From assembly GCF_045037415.1 (NCBI RefSeq), contig NZ_CP173438.1: 64,000 bases of DNA. The stretch is one strand, 5' to 3'. Origin of the DNA: Escherichia coli. GTDB taxonomy: Bacteria; Pseudomonadota; Gammaproteobacteria; Enterobacterales; Enterobacteriaceae. A program made the position numbers and the translations under genes. The notes beneath the pieces were generated by a model. It was not told where the DNA came from. It worked only from the letters and a program-made list of their open reading frames with translations, and did not search any database. Positions 2,601 through 33,015 of the stretch are shown here, piece after piece; within the stretch, counting starts at the first letter, position 1; every line of letters starts with the position of its first letter.

Positions 2601-4025
2601 TTACTGCATTAACAGGTAGATAGTGCTGTCGCCGCGCTGAATGTTCAGTGCCAGCACAGACGGTTTGCTGTCGAGAACTTTACGCAGTTCAGCGATGTTT
2701 TTCACTGCCTGCTGGTTCGCGCCAATAATCACATCACCTTTCTTCAGGCCGATCTGCGCAGCCGGAGTCCCCGTTTTCACGTTGTTCACCACCACGCCCT
2801 GATCTTTGCCTTTGTTACTCATCTCAGCGCCTTCAATGCCGTTGAAGATGGTGCTGGAATCAACCTGATTCTGGCTGCTCTGCTGAAGTTCCAGGTTCAC
2901 GTTAACCTGCTTCCCGTCGCGCAGTAAGCCCAGGGTCAGTTTGCTACCTACCGGCATAGTGCCCACCTGAGCACGCAGTGCGGCAAAGCTGCTGATTGGC
3001 TTACCGTTCAGTGAGGTGATCACATCACCCGCTTTAATGCCCGCTTTCGCGGCGGAAGAATTCGGCAGAACCTGGCTTACGAAAGCACCGCGCTGAGCGT
3101 CAACTTTCATCGCTTTCGCCAGATCGGAGTTCAGCTCAGTGCCCATAATACCCAACTCACCACGTTTCACCTGGCCGTATTCCACCATCTGCGAGGTCAG
3201 GTTTTTCACCATGTTGCTCGGGATAGCAAAACCGATACCGATGTTTCCGCCGTCCGGTGCGAGGATCGCGGTGTTGATACCAATCAGTTCGCCGTTCAGG
3301 TTAACCAACGCACCACCTGAGTTACCCCGGTTGATCGCTGCATCGGTCTGGATGAAGTTTTCGTAGTTTTCAGCGTTCAGGCCGCTACGTCCCAGCGCAG
3401 AGACAATCCCGGAAGTTACTGTCTCGCCCAGGCCGAACGGGTTACCAATTGCTACGGTGTAATCACCCACGCGCAGCGCATCAGAATCCGCCATCTTAAT
3501 TGCGGTCAGGTTTTTCGGGTTCTGGATCTGGATCAACGCGATATCAGAGCGCGGATCTTTGCCAACCATCTTCGCGTCGAACTTACGACCATCGCTAAGC
3601 TGGACTTTAATCACCGTCGCGTTATCAACAACGTGGTTGTTGGTGACGACATAGCCTTTATCGGCATCAATGATGACGCCGGAACCCAGCGCCATGAATT
3701 TCTGTTGCTGGCCGCCGCCATTACCGCCCGGGCCCCCCTGGCAGAACGGAGAGCTCTGGAACGGAGAACCCTCCTGGCAGAACGGAGAATCATCACCGAA
3801 GAACTGCTGGAAATTACGCGGCATACGCGGCGTATTAACGGTTGTGCTACCTTCTACGTTAATGCTGACCACTGAAGGCATCACCTTTTCGAGCATCGGT
3901 GCAAGGCTTGGCATCTGCTGGGCTGTCGTTGCTGAAGAAGTCTCAGCCGCCGTTGCAGAGAGCGGAGATAACGCCAAACCTAAACTCAGAGCCAGTGCAC
4001 TCAGTGCTAATGTGGTTTTTTTCAT
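2601..4025 (-). CDS. degP: periplasmic serine endoprotease DegP/HtrA (trypsin domain + 2 PDZ)
   Basis: 474-aa translation with signal peptide, GNSGGAL serine protease motif, PDZ regions. Confidence 0.95.
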   Translation of the reverse strand: MKKTTLALSALALSLGLALSPLSATAAETSSATTAQQMPSLAPMLEKVMPSVVSINVEGSTTVNTPRMPRNFQQFFGDDSPFCQEGSPFQSSPFCQGGPGGNGGGQQQKFMALGSGVIIDADKGYVVTNNHVVDNATVIKVQLSDGRKFDAKMVGKDPRSDIALIQIQNPKNLTAIKMADSDALRVGDYTVAIGNPFGLGETVTSGIVSALGRSGLNAENYENFIQTDAAINRGNSGGALVNLNGELIGINTAILAPDGGNIGIGFAIPSNMVKNLTSQMVEYGQVKRGELGIMGTELNSDLAKAMKVDAQRGAFVSQVLPNSSAAKAGIKAGDVITSLNGKPISSFAALRAQVGTMPVGSKLTLGLLRDGKQVNVNLELQQSSQNQVDSSTIFNGIEGAEMSNKGKDQGVVVNNVKTGTPAAQIGLKKGDVIIGANQQAVKNIAELRKVLDSKPSVLALNIQRGDSTIYLLMQ

Positions 4026-4069
4026 GTATTTCAGTCTCGATTAACAGATAACGCAAAATTGCTGTGTTC

Positions 4070-15059: not shown

Positions 15060-17309
15060 TTAGAAACGGAAGGTTGCGGTTGCAACGACCTGACGTTCTG
15101 CGCCCCAGAAGCAACCATAAGTGTTAAAGCAGCTGGCGACGTATTCACGATCGAACAGGTTGTTGACATGCAGCGCCACGTTGGAGCCCGCCATGCCGAC
15201 TCGCGCCAGATCATAACGCACTAACGCATCCACGACCGTATAACTTCCCACTTTAAAGGAGTTAGCCGGATCACCATAGCTGGAGCCAGTATAACGACCA
15301 CCGGTGCCCAGCGTCAGACCTGAAAGCGGACCGTCAAAGAAGGTATAGTCAGCCCACAGCGAAGCCATGTGTTTTGGCACCTGTGCAGGCGTATTTCCTT
15401 TGTAGTTGGTGTCAGTGGTGTATTCCGCGTCAGTATAGGTGTAAGAACCAACCAAGTTAACACTCGCCGACAGTGCCGCTTTCGCTTCCAGCTCTACGCC
15501 ACGCGCACGAATCTCACCGCCTTCAACCGAGAACAGTGAACCGTTCGGATCCGCCATCAGGTTATTAGTTTTGGTAAGCTGATACAGTGCGCCAGTCACC
15601 ACAATTGGGCGATCTTCTGGCACATATTTCACGCCGACTTCATACTGTTTGCCTTTCGAAGGTGCAAACAGATCGCCGTTCGCATCAGTCTGTGAAGCGG
15701 GTTCAAATGATTCACTGTAGCTGAAGTAAGGCGTTACGCCGTTGTCGAACAGGTAGTTTACACCACCACGCCAGGTGAACTCTTTGTCGTCACGTTCAGA
15801 TTTATTACCGTAATCACGGTTGAAAGATGACTGATCGGCCCAGTCATAGCGACCGCCAAGCGTAACCAGCACTTTATCCCACTGCGCCTGATCCTGAACA
15901 TACAGGCCGGTTTGTTTCTGTTTCAGCAGAACGCGGTATGGACCAGACGGATTCGGGTGAGCGCCAAAATCAAAGTCACTACGGTCTAAATTATAGATAT
16001 CAGATGGTGCAACTGAACCGGCATAACCAAACCAGGAATCGATGTCATTACGCATACGCATAAAGTCAACGCCAGTCAGCAGAGTGTGATCCACTGAACC
16101 GGTTGCGAATTTGCTTTGCAACTGAGTATCAACAGAGAAGTTTTCTAACTTCTCATTATCGATAACGTACTGACGAGTCAGTGTATGGCCCCATTGAGAC
16201 TGCGGCACGTTAGCACATGGACTCGAAGAGGGGTTTGAAGAATAGAGCGGGTCTGAGCACATGCCGTAGCCATATACGCTCTTTTGCGAGACTTTATTTT
16301 GTGCAAAGCGCAGGTTCTGACGCACAGTAAAGGTGTCGTTAAATTCGTGGTCGAAGCTATAACCAATCATCTTCTCGTTACGAGAATAGGTGTTGTTCTT
16401 CGCGCCTTCGTTAAAGTCGGTCGGCAGACGCTTACCGTTTGGCAGCGGTTCGACAGTCCCCTCTTTCGGCAACCAGCCGTAATAACCGGTTTCCGGCTCG
16501 TTCTGGAAGTAAGAAAGGAAAGTGAAATTGGTTTTATCATTCGGACGCCAGGTAAACGCTGGAGCAATAGCATAACGCTGCTCTTCAGCCCCCTTCTGCT
16601 GGGCATTCGCAGAACGCGCAAGGCCGGTCAGGCGATAAGAGTAAACGCCGTCATCATCCAGCGCATCGCTGAAGTCAAAACCAGTCTGGAATAGGCTGTC
16701 AGTCCCGGCCTTAAACTGAACTTCTTTCAACGGTTCAGTGGTCGGGCGCTTGCTGACCATGTTCAACAGGCCGCCTGGGCTGCTTTTCCCATACAGCACG
16801 GAAACCGGGCCACGCATGATTTCAGCGCGCTCCAGCATATATGGGTCAATAACCGCATCGTTATAGAAGTTGCCCTGCATCTTCAGGCCATTCAGATAGT
16901 TGTTCTGGCTTTGGCCGTCTGCCGCAAATCCGCGGATGATCAGGTAATCATAAGTATTAGATGCGCCACGGGTTCCCACAGCAACGCCAGGGGTATAGCT
17001 AAGCGCTTCTTTCACCGACTTAGGCTGATGCAGTGCCATCTCTTCAGCGGTGACGACAGAAATAGATTGAGGTACTTTTTGAATCGGCGTATCAGTTTTA
17101 GTGCCGGTAGCGGACTGTCGCGCCGCAATAGTTGCAGCTGGCCCCCATGCGCTTTCTTGCGGCGCAGGTGCAGCGGTAACGGTGATAGTGTCTTCTTTCG
17201 GTTCAACCGCTGCCTGTGCATAAACAGACATGCCGCTAACCGCTGTGGCTACTACAACTGCGATTTTACGCAGTGAGTGTTTTGGCTGAGCAGTTTTGGA
17301 ACGCGCCAT
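15060..17309 (-). CDS. fhuA: TonB-dependent ferrichrome outer membrane receptor FhuA (phage T1/T5/phi80 and colicin M receptor)
   Basis: 749-aa translation with signal peptide, TonB box (DTITVTA), terminal ...ATATFRF beta-barrel motif. Confidence 0.95.
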   Translation of the reverse strand: MARSKTAQPKHSLRKIAVVVATAVSGMSVYAQAAVEPKEDTITVTAAPAPQESAWGPAATIAARQSATGTKTDTPIQKVPQSISVVTAEEMALHQPKSVKEALSYTPGVAVGTRGASNTYDYLIIRGFAADGQSQNNYLNGLKMQGNFYNDAVIDPYMLERAEIMRGPVSVLYGKSSPGGLLNMVSKRPTTEPLKEVQFKAGTDSLFQTGFDFSDALDDDGVYSYRLTGLARSANAQQKGAEEQRYAIAPAFTWRPNDKTNFTFLSYFQNEPETGYYGWLPKEGTVEPLPNGKRLPTDFNEGAKNNTYSRNEKMIGYSFDHEFNDTFTVRQNLRFAQNKVSQKSVYGYGMCSDPLYSSNPSSSPCANVPQSQWGHTLTRQYVIDNEKLENFSVDTQLQSKFATGSVDHTLLTGVDFMRMRNDIDSWFGYAGSVAPSDIYNLDRSDFDFGAHPNPSGPYRVLLKQKQTGLYVQDQAQWDKVLVTLGGRYDWADQSSFNRDYGNKSERDDKEFTWRGGVNYLFDNGVTPYFSYSESFEPASQTDANGDLFAPSKGKQYEVGVKYVPEDRPIVVTGALYQLTKTNNLMADPNGSLFSVEGGEIRARGVELEAKAALSASVNLVGSYTYTDAEYTTDTNYKGNTPAQVPKHMASLWADYTFFDGPLSGLTLGTGGRYTGSSYGDPANSFKVGSYTVVDALVRYDLARVGMAGSNVALHVNNLFDREYVASCFNTYGCFWGAERQVVATATFRF

Positions 17310-17330
17310 TGGTATATCTCTGATGAAAGT

Positions 17331-17360
17331 GAATGATAACGTAAACGAGAATGATTATTA
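17331..17360 (-). promoter_or_regulatory. Fur box (iron box) in fhuA promoter/leader
   Basis: Plus strand gaatgataacgtaaacgagaatgattatta; reverse complement contains GATAATCATTCTC...GTTATCATTC, close to the Fur consensus GATAATGATAATCATTATC; lies 22-51 nt upstream of the fhuA ATG. Confidence 0.55.
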
Positions 17361-17528
17361 TAAAGATGCGATAATATTCGAAACGCTGGCGGGTTCGCAA
17401 GTGATATACGCTCTGTGCGTCCATGAAGGGGCGAGAATCAATCAGATGAATCAAAAATGTTAATCTTTGCACCGTAAACCATAAAAATTCCATTACCAAA
17501 AATTAACATTTATGGCAAAGGGAAAAGC

Positions 17529-18539
17529 TTATCGGTAATACACTTCGAAGGTGGCAACAGAATTAACCCGACCACTTTTGACGCTACCCATTTTGATGTA
17601 GCGTGCTTTTAACGGAATAGTAACATTTTGATTTAACGTCGTTTTTTGAACAGGTGTATAGTCTGTATCAAATACCATCACATTGTTATTACTATCGAGG
17701 ATCTGCAGACCAACTCCTTCCGCCATTCCTGAACCAGACTCAATATTAAGAATATTATTACCCGTTACTCCAGTAGAACCTGATGAAGTAAAGCGGTAAT
17801 CAACTTTTACATCCTGAGAACATTTTTCAATCTGAATTTTAAACCGATCATCGGAAACTACAGGTGACACATTGTTAACATCAAAATCATCTGTGCCAAT
17901 ATCATTGAGTGGAACGGTAATATTTTTTTCTATAAGGTCGCATGTGCCCGGTTGAATATTGACCGGAACAGAACTAAAACGAAGCTCTCCAATAACACGA
18001 TTGTCATACTTCCAGTCAGCAACCAGTTTGCTGGTATCAATGGTCCCATTACCGACAGGTCCTGTGACAATAAACTGAATAGCTGCATGTATTGTAATCG
18101 GATAACCATATCCTTTAATCACTGTTGACGAGCCTTTATGCCAGGGCGTCATTAAATATCCGGCGGTGAGTTGCGCACTGGTGTTATTCGCCCACGCCGC
18201 GCGAAAACCGATTCCTGGCACATTAGTCTGAAACACATTGTTAAGTGGGTTATCAGTACGCATATCACCGTTTGTCAATACGGTATATCCTTGCCAGATC
18301 TCACCATTTGCCGTACAGGAAACTGAAATTGACGGACTGTTCGCATTTACTGTCGCAATAATCGTTCCAGGAACGGCATCGCTATTAACAACCAACGCAG
18401 GCACGGAGAATTGTACTGTTGCCGGATTTCCTCCATTTCCAGAAATGTTACAACCGGCGAAAACCTCAGGAATGACGCCCCAGCTAAGAAATATTATGGT
18501 CAATAATGTTCGTATATAAGAGACGAATCCTGGCTTCAT
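17529..18539 (-). CDS. fimbrial adhesin-like protein (two-domain tip subunit), last gene of accessory chaperone-usher operon
   Basis: 336-aa translation with signal peptide and pilin-type C-terminus ...ATFEVYYR; longer than a structural pilin, consistent with lectin + pilin domains. Confidence 0.75.
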   Translation of the reverse strand: MKPGFVSYIRTLLTIIFLSWGVIPEVFAGCNISGNGGNPATVQFSVPALVVNSDAVPGTIIATVNANSPSISVSCTANGEIWQGYTVLTNGDMRTDNPLNNVFQTNVPGIGFRAAWANNTSAQLTAGYLMTPWHKGSSTVIKGYGYPITIHAAIQFIVTGPVGNGTIDTSKLVADWKYDNRVIGELRFSSVPVNIQPGTCDLIEKNITVPLNDIGTDDFDVNNVSPVVSDDRFKIQIEKCSQDVKVDYRFTSSGSTGVTGNNILNIESGSGMAEGVGLQILDSNNNVMVFDTDYTPVQKTTLNQNVTIPLKARYIKMGSVKSGRVNSVATFEVYYR

Positions 18540-18560
18540 TATTTTTTCCTGTCTTATTTG

Positions 18561-21038
18561 TTATCGGCAATCCATTGTGGCTTTATAGATACCCGTGGTG
18601 TATTTTTCTGGCACTGTGACAACTCCTGTACATTGCTGGTTAATCTCTTTTCCCCACTGTACCGTAAATGTCATTGATTCTTGCACACCAGTAATATAAA
18701 CCTCCCCATCTTCACCAACAATCGCTGTACTATTCCCTAATGTCAGCAATGCCCCAAAGGGTACGCGTTCTTTATTATGGACTAATGTCAACAAGGCTCG
18801 TATTCCGCTACGTGCATCAAAATCGACACCAACAACAGCCCCTTTCGAAGGAATAACATCTTGTGTGGCATCAGAAATATCAAGACTATCGTGCCCCTGT
18901 GTATTCACAGTAATAGCGTTATGTCGATAATTCGTCATATTGGGAACAATCGCGTTTCCCCAATAATCAGTATAAACGCCTTGCGCATTTTGTACTTTTA
19001 CATTGGCACCCTCATTAATATGCACGATCGCGAATGAATCCTGCACTGATTGCCCCAATGTTACTCCATGAGCATGAGCAACCACCGCACCTTGCGCACT
19101 GTAATTCCACTGACGACTATTTTTATCATAGCTATATCCCAGACCGAATTCCCCCACTGAGCTACGATAACGTCCATTCATGCTGGCATCATAACCCACA
19201 TTATTATCAGTATAACTTTGCTGTAAATTATAACTCAGGTTGTTATCTTGCAGAGCAGTACCGCCAATTCCCAATTGATGTGATGTATTACTTTTATCGG
19301 AACGGTTTACGTTATACATCGCCCATGAATCTGGCAGCCAGCGAGAGAGAGGAATATTGAGTGTTAATGAAAATTGCTGCTCACCAGCCATTCCTGGCGT
19401 TTTCGTTAGTGTGTAATTAACAGACCAATTAATGTTACTCCAGGTCGTACTGTATCCCATTCCTATACTGCGTTCGGCCCCATGCATTCCCCAATAATCC
19501 TGTTGATAACCGTTAAGGTAGACCGAGCCCCAACGACCAATATTTTGTGAAAGATTAATTTGTAAACGATTACGCCGATTATTTGTCTGTCGATAACTGT
19601 AAATACCCTTGTCATCAGGTGTATCACGTTGATCAAGTGCTTCCTGGAAAGTGTAAAATTGTGATGTAGAATAACGATAACTTGCCAGAGTTACTGTCGT
19701 ATCAGTGTCTGGAAAATCTTTCGCATACTGTGCACGCCATGACAGTCCTGTAGCATCATCACGCCCATCATCAAACTTCGTTTCTGCTGCGGTGATATCA
19801 ACAGATACCGACCCCAGACGGCCTAAATCAGCGCCAATCCCTGTCACACCAGAATGATAAATTGAGGCACCAAGTATGCCGCCATAAATCGTTATTCCAT
19901 AGGGCAAGCCATATATCGCGGTTGCAACACCAAAAACAGGTGTCTCAGCATGATTATCGTTGTCACGGTATTTTCCAGTTGCAAGACTATATTTTAATGC
20001 GCCTTCTCGCTGTAGAATTGGAACCGTTGAACTGGCCTGAATAAAACTGTGTTCTTGCCCGTTGGTTTCTTTGATGGTGACTTCCAGATCGGCCCCCGCC
20101 GTTACCTGGCTTAAGTCTTTAATTTCAAATGGCCCTGCCGATACCCACGTTTGGTAAATAACATAGCCGTTTTGTTTAATCACAACTTGTGCATCGCTGT
20201 TGGCAATACCACGAACCACTGGCGCAAAGCCTTGTTCGCTGTCAGGCAGCATACTGGTGTCCGTTTCAAGCTTTATACCTGTCATCTGCACACTGTCAAA
20301 AAGATCGCCATTTGTGAACGTCTGCCCGACTTCCATCTGGCTTCTTAATGCTTTGATATCGCGTTGCAAACTGGTGCTGATCGACTCCCAACTGGAGTCA
20401 CTGTAAACGGTATTATTTCGTAGCCGCCATACGCCTAAATTAATCCCTGAATTTAAATTCAACCAATTTGAATTCAGGTTATCGCCATCACTGTTTTGCC
20501 GGGAACCACTGGCGTAATAACTTAACCAAACCGCACTCTCACCATCACTCCAGTATTTCGGTGAAATACTCCCTGCGGCCCGCGCATTCTGATAGATTTG
20601 CGGGATCCGCAGACACAGCGTTTGGCTGTCTAACTGGAAATCATAACGTGCGCCATCAATAATCTGAGCAATATCACCAAACTCAGTGTCATCATCCATT
20701 ACTTGTAACGCGGGAATGTCGTCAACTTTAAGACCGAACTCACGGAGATCCGCCTTTGTAAAACGAGGGATGAGCCTTTTTTTATCCGAAGACAGAATGA
20801 AGGTAATATTTCTCTTATCAAGATACTCTTGCCCCCACATAACAGAGGTAAGATATACTCCCGGAGTTAAGTTATTATTATTAACAAAATCCTCCAGCAC
20901 TTGTGTATTTTCAAGTGGGCTATCCAGCTCCAGGATACGAAGGTTAAATTCATCTCGTGCATAGCTCAATGAATACACTGCCGATAATGCAAATGTTATC
21001 CCAGTTAAGACAAATGTGCGATGCAATGGTAGCAGCAT
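18561..21038 (-). CDS. fimbrial outer membrane usher protein
   Basis: 825-aa translation with usher features (N-terminal signal, plug and barrel segments, C-terminal Cys pair). Confidence 0.85.
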   Translation of the reverse strand: MLLPLHRTFVLTGITFALSAVYSLSYARDEFNLRILELDSPLENTQVLEDFVNNNNLTPGVYLTSVMWGQEYLDKRNITFILSSDKKRLIPRFTKADLREFGLKVDDIPALQVMDDDTEFGDIAQIIDGARYDFQLDSQTLCLRIPQIYQNARAAGSISPKYWSDGESAVWLSYYASGSRQNSDGDNLNSNWLNLNSGINLGVWRLRNNTVYSDSSWESISTSLQRDIKALRSQMEVGQTFTNGDLFDSVQMTGIKLETDTSMLPDSEQGFAPVVRGIANSDAQVVIKQNGYVIYQTWVSAGPFEIKDLSQVTAGADLEVTIKETNGQEHSFIQASSTVPILQREGALKYSLATGKYRDNDNHAETPVFGVATAIYGLPYGITIYGGILGASIYHSGVTGIGADLGRLGSVSVDITAAETKFDDGRDDATGLSWRAQYAKDFPDTDTTVTLASYRYSTSQFYTFQEALDQRDTPDDKGIYSYRQTNNRRNRLQINLSQNIGRWGSVYLNGYQQDYWGMHGAERSIGMGYSTTWSNINWSVNYTLTKTPGMAGEQQFSLTLNIPLSRWLPDSWAMYNVNRSDKSNTSHQLGIGGTALQDNNLSYNLQQSYTDNNVGYDASMNGRYRSSVGEFGLGYSYDKNSRQWNYSAQGAVVAHAHGVTLGQSVQDSFAIVHINEGANVKVQNAQGVYTDYWGNAIVPNMTNYRHNAITVNTQGHDSLDISDATQDVIPSKGAVVGVDFDARSGIRALLTLVHNKERVPFGALLTLGNSTAIVGEDGEVYITGVQESMTFTVQWGKEINQQCTGVVTVPEKYTTGIYKATMDCR

Positions 21039-21104
21039 AAATTCCCTTGCGCCCGTAATATTATAAATACAGATCGGTTATTTATAGTAATACACTTCGG
21101 TGAT

Positions 21105-21821
21105 TTATAACTTTTGTTGTCGTTTCCCAGAACTTGAACCGTAGTCAGTTATCACCGACCATTCAACAATACTTCCCGCTCCGACAGGAAGACTAAACCG
21201 CTGCTCAGAAAATGGTCCTACCATCATCAATAATGCGCCAGGTTCAGATTTGCTCTCGGTGGGAACAATATTTTTTCCCGATACTGTCAGATCACTGAAT
21301 GAAATATAAAAAGGCGTTGGATTTTTTACTATGAGCTTCCCCGCTTCTTTATGGAACTTAAGTTTTTCCCATGCAGTGAGAGCATCACTATTATCCAAAG
21401 AAGCTGGCCGCCAAAATAATTTAAGCCGGGCTTTCATTGCAAATTGCAAGGTATTTCTATCTTTTAGTTCTTCTGGCATCGCAGAAACAGATTTTATGTT
21501 TGCCAGAAACAAACTTTCCCTATCCTGAGGAAGTTTGTTTTTATCACCTGTAAATACAATATGGAGTAATGTTTGCCGATTTTCTTCAAGTTTATAAACT
21601 GGAGGCGTAATGAGAAAGGGGGCTTTAGAGCCATCAATATTACTCACCCAGCTTTGCACCAAATAGCGTGCATATGCATCTTTATTTTTTAATGTGATTT
21701 GAACTTCATTTTGATTTGAAGGATAGATAATACGTGTACCGCCAAGAACAATACTTGCCTGAACTTGCAATGCCGTAAGAAGAAACGTAAAACCTAAACA
21801 AACTCGAGAAAAAACTGACAT
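21105..21821 (-). CDS. periplasmic fimbrial chaperone (PapD-like)
   Basis: ORF 21105..21854; start placed at ATG 21821 (MSVFSRVCLGF... signal peptide), preceded by ggaggg 8 nt upstream. Confidence 0.8.
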   Translation of the reverse strand: MSVFSRVCLGFTFLLTALQVQASIVLGGTRIIYPSNQNEVQITLKNKDAYARYLVQSWVSNIDGSKAPFLITPPVYKLEENRQTLLHIVFTGDKNKLPQDRESLFLANIKSVSAMPEELKDRNTLQFAMKARLKLFWRPASLDNSDALTAWEKLKFHKEAGKLIVKNPTPFYISFSDLTVSGKNIVPTESKSEPGALLMMVGPFSEQRFSLPVGAGSIVEWSVITDYGSSSGKRQQKL

Positions 21822-21866
21822 AAATAACCCTCCGTGGTCAAACAGTCCTTTCAAACACTATGAATA

Positions 21867-22433
21867 TTAGCGATAAAATACTTCGAACGTCGCAGATGAG
21901 GCATACTTACCCGCAGTCGGCGCGTTATTACCAACCTGAATAACATTGGCGGTGTAATTGAATATTGTTGGAGTAATGCTCCCGGCATTATCAACATCAG
22001 TGGATGCATCGGGAACTGAACCATCAAATTTCACATCGTTAGCACCGCCATTTTTATTTGTCACCGTAATACCCACATTTGTTGCACTGCCAGCCCCAGC
22101 TTCGCTATTTTCCAGACGCAGGAAACCTGCATCCGTTGTCGTTCCAGAAAATGTCAGGTTTAGTTTGTCCACCAACGGATCGCATTTTATTAATTCAATT
22201 TTAAAATCTTTTGACGTTCCAATACTACCGTCTCCAGAATAGTCCGCTGGGTAAGTATCTGCAAAAGTGACTGTCCCTGTTGTACTGGCAGACTCGTTTA
22301 CATTAATTTCGCAAGTATCGGCAACAATTTTACCGTTAAAGTTAACCACTCCGGTATCTGTAGCAAATACACTGGTACTTACTACAGCGATGAGACTTCC
22401 TGACACTAACAGAGAAAGCAATTTTTTATTCAT
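21867..22433 (-). CDS. major fimbrial subunit (type 1 pilin-like), first gene of accessory operon
   Basis: 188-aa translation, signal peptide, Cys pair, C-terminal ...SSATFEVFYR donor-strand motif. Confidence 0.85.
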   Translation of the reverse strand: MNKKLLSLLVSGSLIAVVSTSVFATDTGVVNFNGKIVADTCEINVNESASTTGTVTFADTYPADYSGDGSIGTSKDFKIELIKCDPLVDKLNLTFSGTTTDAGFLRLENSEAGAGSATNVGITVTNKNGGANDVKFDGSVPDASTDVDNAGSITPTIFNYTANVIQVGNNAPTAGKYASSATFEVFYR

Positions 22434-22734
22434 AAAAATCCCTTAATTATGAGGTAATACACATGATTCCATTCCAGAGCGACTGGTCAGGGCTTGATAA
22501 ATATTGATATTAGAAATATATCCACCAAATAATATTATTTTTAGATTAGAACAAAAAACACATAGCCTGTCTATACAAACTGCAGTAATAAAACAATAAC
22601 CACATGAATTTTAAAGTGTTGTTTTTATTTTAAGAGTTTAAGGTAATAAAATATAACATAAACCCAAAATATATATTAATGGTCGTATATTCATTAAATA
22701 AATATTTATTTGGTTTATCTAAATGATTTCATTA

Positions 22735-22758
22735 CGCTCTCCGCATAAGCGGAGAGCG
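22735..22758 (-). terminator. mrcB terminator hairpin
   Basis: cgctctccgc ataa gcggagagcg perfect 10-bp inverted repeat 10 nt 3' of the mrcB stop, AT-rich tail on minus strand. Confidence 0.55.
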
Positions 22759-22767
22759 ATTACGATA

Positions 22768-25293
22768 TTAATTACTACCAAACATCTCCTTGATCCAGCC
22801 AGCCACGCCGTCGCTGTCTTTTTGCTCCTGTTGAGCAGGTTGCTGTTGCTGCGGCTGAGAAGACTGATCAAACGGATTGCCTGACGGTTGCTGCTGCATC
22901 TCACTCTGCTGGCACAGCGATTGCGGATCGCTGGTCCAGACTGGCAAGACACGCATACCACCGCTGCAAACAAAGTTGCCGTCGTAGTCCACGCCCATAT
23001 CTGCAATATCTTCCGGCGGAACAAGATTCAGCGGTGTTGGCGTCTGGTTAGCCAGATAACGCTGATAAATCGACATTGCCCCGCTGGCACCATACAGTTT
23101 GGTCGGCTGGTTGTTATCACGGCCGACCCAGGTGATGGTCACCGTGCTCCCATCAATGCCCGCAAACCAGGTATCTACGTTATTGTTGGTAGTCCCTGTT
23201 TTCCCTGCCAGATGCAGGTTCGGGTATTTTGCCCCAAGCTGACGTCCCGTACCGCGTTGTACAACCTGCTGCATGGTCCATAGTGTCAGATACGCCGCCT
23301 GCGCCGGAACAGCGCGTTCTGCCTGCGGGAAGCTCTGATACAACACCTTGCCGTCTTCTGCGATGACTGAACGTAGCGCGGAAAGCGGAGCACGATTACC
23401 ACCGCTGGCGATAGTCTGGAAGGCCTGCGCCACTTCGATTGGCGTTAAGTTCAACGCCCCCAACAACATTGCTGGAACTGGATTCAGTTGATCTTTCGGC
23501 ACACCCAGTTTGATCCAGGTATCCGTAACCGCAGGCAGCCCCAACGCCATGCCCAGATTCACCGTTGGCACGTTCATCGAACGGGTCAACGCATCTACCA
23601 GCATCACCCTGCCACTTTCGCTATAACGACGATCATCGTTCTGCGGTGACCAGACCTGGCCATTCGGCTGACGCAGCGCGATTGGCGCATCGGCAATCCA
23701 CGTATTCAAACGATAGATTTTCGGCTGGCTTAAGGCCGTTAGATAAGTCGCTGGTTTTGCAAGGGAACCAATCGAACGACGCGCCTGCATCGCACGGTTG
23801 TAGCCCGCAAACTGCGGCTCAGAGCCACCGACCATCGCACGAACTTCACCGCTAAAGCGGTCAACAACCACAATCGCGGTTTCAAGATCGCTCAACTTAC
23901 GCTGTTTCTTCAGTGCCGGAATGCCTTCCACGGCGGCTTTTTCTGCCGCGTCCTGGGCCACCGAGTCAAAGGTAGTGAAGATCTTCACGCCGGAGAGATC
24001 TTTTACCTTATCGCCTAATTTCGCCTGCAGCTCCTGACGCACCAGCTGCATAAAGGCTGGCTGAGGAGAGATCACCCCACCGCGCGGCTGAACACCCAGC
24101 GGACGTGCACTCAACATGTCATAGAGTTCTTGATCAATAATTTGTTGCTGTTGCAGCAAACGTAGTACCAGGTTACGTCGCTCCAGCGCCAGTTTCGGGT
24201 TACGCCACGGGTTGTAGATGGACGCCCCTTTCACCATACCCACCAACAGCGCCTGCTGATCGAGGCTCAATTCTTCTACCGGGCGACCAAAGTAATACAA
24301 GCTCGCCAGCGGGAAGCCGCGGATTTCGTTGTCGCCGCTCTGACCGAGATACACCTCGTTCATATACAGCTCAAGAATACGGTCTTTGCTGTAACGCGCG
24401 TCCATGATCAGCGCCATGTAGGCTTCGTTCGCTTTACGCCAGTAAGAACGCTCGCTGGAGAGAAACAGGTTTTTAACCAACTGTTGCGTCAGCGTACTCG
24501 CCCCCTGCACCGTGCGTCCGGCAGTCAGGTTTGCCAGCACCGCACGTCCGATTGAGTAGAGACTGATCCCATCATGCTCGTAGAAATGACGGTCTTCTGT
24601 CGCCAGCAAAGTATCCACCAGCAAATCCGGGAAACCACTGCGCGGCACAAACAGACGCTGCTCACCGTTTGGCGAAGAGATCATGGTGATCAGGCGCGGA
24701 TCAAGACGGAAGAAACCGAACTGACGGTTGTTCTCCATATTGACTATCGTCGCCAGATGATCGCCATCAAAGGTCAGACGCGCGCGCACCTGCCCTTCTT
24801 TGCTGTCCGGGAAATCAAACGGACGGCGGATCATCTCAATGCTGTTGGCCTGTACGGTAAACTCACCAGGACGGGTCATTTTCGACACCTGGCGATACTG
24901 GGTCGCCTCCAGCAGCTTCACCATCTCGTTCTTGCTGATGGTCATGTCTGGCTCAAGGTTGACCATTCGACCATAAACTGCCGCGGGCAATTGCCAGACC
25001 TTGCCATCAATACGGCTGCGAATTTTTTGATCGAGATAAACGCCGTAAATGGCGATCAGCACGGCAAAAACGATAGCCAGTTTTAGCAGCAGCCATAGCC
25101 AGCCGCGTTTGCCACGAGGCTTACGCCCTTTGCCTTTGCCCTTACCTTTGCGCGGCATCGGTTCTTCATCCTCATAGTCATCATAATCGTCGTAATCATC
25201 GTCATCTTCGTAACGACGACGGCTTACCTTTTGTTTGACCGGACGCGTCGGTTTCCCTTTGCGTCCAATTGGCTCGCGGTCATTCCCGGCCAT
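22768..25293 (-). CDS. mrcB: penicillin-binding protein 1B (bifunctional glycosyltransferase/transpeptidase)
   Basis: ORF 22768..25308; start moved to [13 protein letters not shown]; acidic [15 protein letters not shown] tract and Gln-rich C-terminus. Confidence 0.9.
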
Positions 25294-32668: not shown

Positions 32669-33015
32669 TGTAACAGTAACGTGAATATAAATAAATTCCG
32701 AAAAATAACCTCACCCTATTGAAATTAATACACCCTCTCAGTTACAATCATAATTAATATTATTTTTTCGCCCCCCCACCCCATCTCACATACAATACTT
32801 TTCCCGCTGTGTATATTAACTTTTGCTTAAAAATGAATTAAGTGGATATTTAAATTTAAATGTGTACATTATTCTACTTAGTGATGAACAGATGTTAAAT
32901 TCAGTAAATCTTCACATTCATCATTAACAAACTAATCTCTTTTCCTCTATCGGGAATCCCTGCCTGAAAGGGCCCAATTGTAGTTAAACTCATGGAATAT
33001 GATTCAAGGATTTTT

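Follow-up and report, generated by a model that had tools for sequence, protein, structure and literature searches.

To judge from its sequence, the 19-bp inverted repeat at positions 17344-17362 is the Fur operator of the fhuACDB promoter, present in unchanged form in this strain, and is as such already known biology. The window (the whole stretch of 64,000 nucleotides that was analysed, 64 kb in what follows) is E. coli chromosome, and the stretch tested is 100% identical to strain SK1144 and to many other isolates. We consider it very probable that the complete arrangement is that of a Fur operator at the fhuACDB promoter, with transcription starting at about 17364, a HypT sequence adjoining the operator and a fimbrial island upstream. 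As the Fur site, Fur binding and the K-12 transcription start site (TSS) have all been published, the finding has little importance beyond correct annotation. What is added here is a set of precise coordinates in the window, and the recognition that a previously described 30-nt element combines a Fur operator with a HypT-footprint sequence.

The minus strand of the window carries, in order, hrpB, mrcB, a four-gene chaperone-usher fimbrial operon, fhuA, fhuC, fhuD and fhuB. The genes of the fimbrial operon encode a major subunit, a chaperone, an usher (18561-21038) and an adhesin-like protein (17529-18539). Positions 17310-17528 coincide exactly with the 219 nt that separate the adhesin-like ORF, at its stop codon, from the fhuA ATG at 17309, and this intergenic region has a G+C content of 37%. 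The initial annotation had put the end of the fimbrial operon just 220 bp from fhuA on the same strand; this is correct, and both genes lie on the minus strand, which it had left unstated. In K-12, mrcB lies directly upstream of fhuA, with a spacer that is likewise 219 nt long, and in the window the fimbrial island takes the place of mrcB as the upstream neighbour of fhuA. FhuA is the receptor for ferrichrome, albomycin, colicin M, microcin J25 and phages T1, T5 and phi80. The features of the region, with the basis for each, are as follows.

15060-17309, minus strand: fhuA coding sequence, 749 codons, ATG at 17309-17307 (ORF list; ferrichrome porin FhuA annotation in the 100%-identical SK1144).
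17317-17321, minus strand: Shine-Dalgarno-like AGAGA, 7 nt before the fhuA ATG (read from the sequence; block invariant in the alignment).
17330-17344, minus strand: TTACGTTATCATTCA, proximal HypT footprint sequence, forming the 3′ part of the previously described 30-nt element (identical to the Salmonella fhuA footprint).
17344-17362, no strand assigned: predicted Fur operator, 19-bp 9-1-9 inverted repeat TATAATAATCATTCTCGTT, centre 17353, 35-53 nt upstream of the fhuA ATG.
17357-17362, minus strand: TATAAT hexamer inside the Fur site, alternative -10 for a TSS at 17350 (back-calculated from the numbering of Jo 2019).
17364, minus strand: probable fhuA TSS, giving a 55-nt leader (homology to K-12 TSS 167428, via alignment and the K-12 sequence).
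17368-17369, minus strand: lineage-specific GC (TT in K-12) at -5/-4, in the discriminator (alignment and matrix scores).
17371-17376, minus strand: -10 hexamer TATTAT (consensus scanner; conserved in 7/7 aligned sequences; ends 7 nt before the mapped TSS).
17395-17400, minus strand: -35 hexamer TTGCGA, with an 18-nt spacer (consensus scanner; TTGC.A conserved across a variable spacer).
17447-17461, minus strand: AACATTTTTGATTCA, distal HypT footprint position, at the right edge of the fimbrial island (AACCCTTCCTTTTCA in Salmonella, AACCCTTTCTTTTCA in K-12).
17483-17524, minus strand: weak terminator-like element, 5 nt past the fimbrial stop codon (relaxed search; not called by the consensus scanner).
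17529-18539, minus strand: last gene of the four-gene chaperone-usher fimbrial island, adhesin-like, 336 aa (ORF list and annotation).

When matches to the Fur consensus GATAATGATAATCATTATC were simply counted, 14 of 19 positions agreed at 17347-17365, and 15 windows in the 64 kb were equal or better. The bare count therefore does not discriminate, and for this reason a symmetric weight matrix was built from proven sites. It comprised 16 footprinted or gel-shifted K-12 sites, with fhuA left out; Table 4 of Chen et al. 2007 (PMC2189734) supplied the site centres, and the K-12 record supplied their sequences. Scanning with a Fur matrix, a check proposed in the initial annotation, placed the maximum for the 64-kb window at 17344-17362, where the minus-strand sequence TATAATAATCATTCTCGTT scored 20.0 bits and ranked first of about 64,000 positions. 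This score falls within the leave-one-out range of the 16 proven sites, 17.0-28.2 bits. Under an iid model 0.006 matches of at least 20 bits are expected by chance per 64 kb, and 1.7% of Markov-1 simulated windows reached 20 bits. The fhuA Fur box stands out by the matrix, not by the bare consensus.

Fur control of fhuA is textbook knowledge. In K-12 the fhuA cluster at 167439 (-45) was assigned 19.5 bits and three walkers over 31 bp, and was gel-shifted by purified Fur (Chen et al. 2007, PMC2189734). The 19-mer of the window is identical to the K-12 site, and position 167439 is the central C of that 19-mer in the extracted K-12 sequence. A fhuA promoter-lacZ fusion was repressed by Fur in K-12 (Beauchene et al. 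2015, PMC4676285), and a nine-strain ChIP-exo study assigns fhuA to the Fur-2 iModulon (PMC10164565). The literature thus supplies both the binding and the repression by Fur for the identical K-12 sequence, as well as the K-12 TSS, while the sequence match, its statistics and its conservation were established by computation here. A match of only 14/19 to the consensus, in an intergenic region of 37% G+C, could also be read as a chance product of AT-rich DNA with no regulatory role. However, the matrix score is expected so rarely per window, the identical K-12 sequence binds Fur in vitro, and neither E. coli nor related genera show variation in the block. We assign a chance match a negligible probability; the gel shift and the Fur-dependent reporter results in the literature already refute it.

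The site resembles those of the fepA-fes, cirA, fecA and fiu promoters, in which a 9-1-9 Fur site of 17-21 bits likewise overlaps or abuts the promoter of an iron-uptake gene. Those promoters often carry three or four strong overlapping walkers and have longer footprints, whereas fhuA in the window has one strong walker and weak neighbours, the secondary walkers at its promoter scoring at most 2.5 bits. The replacement of TT by GC at 17368-17369 lowers a secondary walker from 6.0 to 2.5 bits. Binding of more than one Fur dimer accordingly appears less clear in the window than in K-12, where the secondary walker has 6.0 bits.

The initial annotation had described a 30-nt iron box 22-51 nt upstream of the fhuA ATG (17331-17360). 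A Fur site is indeed present there, and 17 of its 19 bp overlap the proposed element, but the extent was wrong. The correct site is about 19 bp long and lies at -53 to -35, rather than being 30 bp long at -51 to -22; the earlier element extended 13 nt too far downstream. Its 3′ part (17331-17343) reached no more than 0.4 bits with the Fur matrix, and matches a HypT footprint (PMC6397515). HypT (YjiE) is a HOCl-sensing regulator of the LysR type whose DNase I footprints at the fhuA promoter of Salmonella were reported by Jo et al. 2019 (PMC6397515). Since 17344-17330 has the sequence that HypT footprints in Salmonella and is not a second Fur box, the 30-nt element would be a composite of two operators.

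In Salmonella Typhimurium two HypT operators flank the Fur box of fhuA, the second footprint, AACCCTTCCTTTTCA, beginning 117 nt upstream of the point where the proximal one begins (PMC6397515). The window has the identical proximal sequence TTACGTTATCATTCA and preserves the 117-nt spacing. At the distal position it has AACATTTTTGATTCA in place of the Salmonella Typhimurium sequence, and differs from K-12 (AACCCTTTCTTTTCA) at 5 of 15 bases. Six of the seven positions common to both Salmonella footprints are retained in AACATTTTTGATTCA, which we regard as a putative site only. It is here, at 17461-17447, that homology with K-12 begins to decay and the island ends.

A consensus scanner found TTGCGA/TATTAT as the only promoter-like match on the minus strand of the spacer between the fimbrial operon and fhuA. 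Cappable-seq of MG1655 in minimal medium yielded a plus-strand TSS cluster at 167428, with a relative read score of 31.4 and a log2 enrichment of 3.2 (Ettwiller et al. 2016, PMC4782308). Weaker clusters lie at 167477 (1.96) and 167494 (4.08) (PMC4782308, supplementary file 1), and the same table contains no TSS in 1670xx-1673xx and none at 167442. The supplements of SMRT-Cappable-seq mention neither fhuA nor mrcB. K-12 position 167428 corresponds to 17364 in the window, exactly 7 nt after TATTAT; the +1 base is T, which is unusual. With the TSS at 17364 the Fur 19-mer extends from +3 to +21 and so falls in the early leader, within the footprint of RNA polymerase. In the open complex the polymerase occupies these positions. 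The suggestion in the initial annotation that bound Fur would overlap the core promoter or early leader thus holds when the published K-12 TSS is used. Mapping of the start to another place, which had been named there as grounds for abandoning the proposal, is not what the published K-12 Cappable-seq data show.

A different start point is implied by Jo et al. 2019 (PMC6397515), whose HypT footprints are numbered from +7 to +21 and from -111 to -97, which puts +1 at 17350, 14 nt downstream of 17364. The operator would then be the same, but the -10 element would be TATAAT at 17362-17357, and Fur would occlude both the -10 element and the start, covering -12 to +7. This hexamer is a perfect -10 sequence and lies within the invariant block. 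However, there is no -35-like hexamer 16-18 nt upstream of it (CGTTTC, GTTTCG, GCGTTT), and the consensus scanner did not call the promoter. No Cappable-seq cluster was found at the equivalent K-12 position, 167442, the sole strong one being that at 167428. The hexamer is CATAAT in Pseudenterobacter, in which TATTAT is kept. The TSS used by Jo et al. belongs to a curated annotation derived from Huerta and Collado-Vides 2003, and did not come from a mapping experiment on fhuA (PMC6397515); direct TSS data were therefore sought. Published mapping at single-base resolution speaks for TTGCGA/TATTAT as the promoter rather than for the TATAAT that lies within the Fur box, and we consider a start at 17350 unlikely. 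Under either start point the Fur site overlaps the promoter or the early leader.

The Fur site and its surroundings are highly conserved. Of 5426 complete E. coli genomes, 5376 carry an identical copy of the 41-nt block around it (17366-17326), and 5420 contain the proximal 91 nt before the fhuA ATG. Conservation of the site exceeds that of its flanks, as the promoter-distal 128 nt of the spacer were found at 99% identity or more in only 563 of the 5426 genomes, with a further five at 60-80%. Loci from other species were collected with an exact 24-base pattern, using one genome per species. This yielded only five loci (two other E. coli, Escherichia sp. E1V33, E. whittamii and Pseudenterobacter timonensis) and missed Salmonella, and the cross-species footprint is therefore thin and ascertained. 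In an alignment of seven sequences the stretch from ATAATAATC to the fhuA ATG was invariant, in part by ascertainment; the 24 pattern positions are invariant by construction, and therefore only the flanks carry weight. TTGC.A and TATTAT are conserved, although the sequence separating them is variable in Escherichia sp. E1V33 and Pseudenterobacter.

In the model that we propose, transcription of fhuACDB would start at about 17364 on the minus strand, from a sigma-70 promoter with TTGCGA at 17400-17395, an 18-nt spacer and TATTAT at 17376-17371. The Fur site, 17362-17344, would begin two bases past the start point and span +3 to +21. In iron-sufficient cells, Fe2+-Fur would occupy this site, within the footprint of RNA polymerase, and block either formation of the open complex or escape from the promoter. 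Under iron limitation Fur would depart and fhuACDB would be transcribed with a 55-nt leader. The adjoining 17344-17330 would be the HypT-footprinted sequence of Salmonella rather than a further Fur box. Here we infer repression by steric exclusion, and carry the start point and the mechanism of repression over from K-12 to this strain. K-12 shares the Fur 19-mer, -35 hexamer, spacer, -10 hexamer, leader and start codon context with the window, and there are only three differing positions in the 91 nt that precede the ATG. From 17400 to the fhuA ATG the window departs from K-12 only in having GC for TT at 17369-17368 and in lacking one nucleotide between 17326 and 17325. Upstream of -36 the window diverges, its neighbour being the fimbrial island where K-12 has mrcB and its hairpin. 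The island would have replaced the mrcB-proximal part of the K-12 spacer and left the promoter, Fur site and leader intact.

The initial annotation had reported no convincing terminator in 17310-17528. No canonical one is present, since the consensus scanner found no minus-strand terminator in the spacer between the fimbrial operon and fhuA, but a marginal candidate exists. This is an interrupted, AU-rich hairpin at 17524-17488, of about -11 kcal/mol and with four G-C pairs, and a UUUUU run comes after it at 17487-17483. When the spacer was shuffled 400 times with its dinucleotides preserved, only 2.5% of the shuffles contained a hairpin and U5 tract as good. Folding of the spacer showed no unusual structure (z = -0.83). 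In a second variant of the island (L018), a U7 tract occupies the corresponding position. The hairpin and U5 at 17524-17483 may thus be a plausible but weak terminator of the operon.

With only this weak element between the two operons, the caution about read-through expressed in the initial annotation stands. In island-carrying strains a substantial share of fhuA transcripts could come from the fimbrial operon and partly escape control by Fur at the promoter. This would fit with the lack of a canonical intrinsic terminator on the minus strand between 17528 and 17400, and with the AU-rich, interrupted character of the sole candidate in a spacer of unremarkable folding. On the other hand, the hairpin and U5 sit 5 nt past the stop codon, the expected place for an operon terminator, few shuffles match them, and the related island variant has its U7 tract there. 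In addition, the island has 38-46% G+C against 50-57% in its flanks, and such islands are probably, as a rule, silenced by H-NS. Fur bound at 17362-17344 would also be in the way of a read-through polymerase. We therefore think it improbable that read-through contributes substantially to fhuA expression.

Within the same spacer a perfect 10-bp inverted repeat was noted, AAATGTTAAT (17511-17502) and ATTAACATTT (17463-17454), with its arms 38 nt apart. One arm lies in the terminator-like hairpin and the other at the junction between island and K-12 sequence. The repeat is absent from the minimum-free-energy fold and has Fur-like scores of only 4-7 bits, and no function was found for it. Downstream of mrcB there are hairpins of -21 kcal/mol, unrelated in sequence, in both the present strain (L001, 3925-3965) and K-12 (L002, 3275-3310). 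Neither is followed by a U tract, and mrcB therefore has no canonical intrinsic terminator in either arrangement. Pseudenterobacter has a canonical terminator after mrcB.

The AT-rich island extends over approximately 17465-22770. Its junction with the fimbrial gene was covered in 571 of 5426 complete E. coli genomes, about a tenth, and five genomes, including an O127:H6 strain, carry a distal spacer that is 74% identical. In the adhesin-like protein only the C-terminal pilin domain matches solved structures (FimA and FimF), and residues 1-205 gave no match to solved structures. When the major subunit, chaperone and adhesin-like protein were scanned, none reached an NCBIfam equivalog cut-off. 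An assignment of the island as a Ucl/F17-like operon was rejected, as no lectin domain of the UclD/F17G type was found in the adhesin and there is no NCBIfam equivalog. We found no published name for the operon; Wurpel 2013 mentions neither mrcB nor fhuA.

Four states of the mrcB-fhuA spacer were seen: the K-12 type, the fimbrial island, the second island variant with a spacer of its own (L018) and, in E. coli E69 (L019), upstream sequence that is unrelated. Across all four, homology resumes at or just before an ATTAAC motif. The spacer thus looks like a recurrent insertion point.

The features specific to this lineage, namely the island, the altered distal HypT position, the GC discriminator and the weak terminator, are the only openings for novelty, and nothing here shows that they have an effect. 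Control of fhuA might be subtly rewired in the approximately 10% of sequenced E. coli that carry the island, through loss of the spacer on the mrcB side, the distal HypT change, the arrival of a weakly terminated operon less than 220 nt from the promoter and the GC discriminator with its weakened secondary Fur walker, although we hold this to be quite doubtful. If it were so, the basal level of fhuA or the response to HOCl could differ, or some expression could occur by Fur-independent read-through. As FhuA is the receptor for the ligands and phages named above, lineage-specific changes in its expression would be of some practical interest; none is demonstrated here.

Other Fur-like matches were seen elsewhere in the window. 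The second-best match to the matrix, AATCATAATTAATATTATT (32746-32764, 18.1 bits), falls in the spacer between folK and yadN, with the Yad fimbrial operon starting about 260 nt downstream of it. The 131 nt around it are lineage-restricted, being found by megablast in 553 of 5426 genomes, and a 2026 paper on yad regulation mentions H-NS and does not mention Fur. The best match to the plain consensus, 16/19, with a matrix score of 14.2 bits, falls at 59720-59762 in GAT/CAT codon repeats of a DUF3300 (yacH-like) gene, and is probably an artefact of the coding repeat. A 13-bit match at 62149-62167, in the aceF-lpdA spacer upstream of lpdA, is of marginal significance, as matches of at least 14 bits occurred in about a third of simulated windows. 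A search of 17150-17700 against Rfam gave no match, even at E ≤ 1. In the whole window a single Rfam family matched at its gathering threshold, the HtrA 5′ UTR thermometer RF02700, which was found at full length on the minus strand at 4020-4065 with 77 bits against a gathering score of 52.
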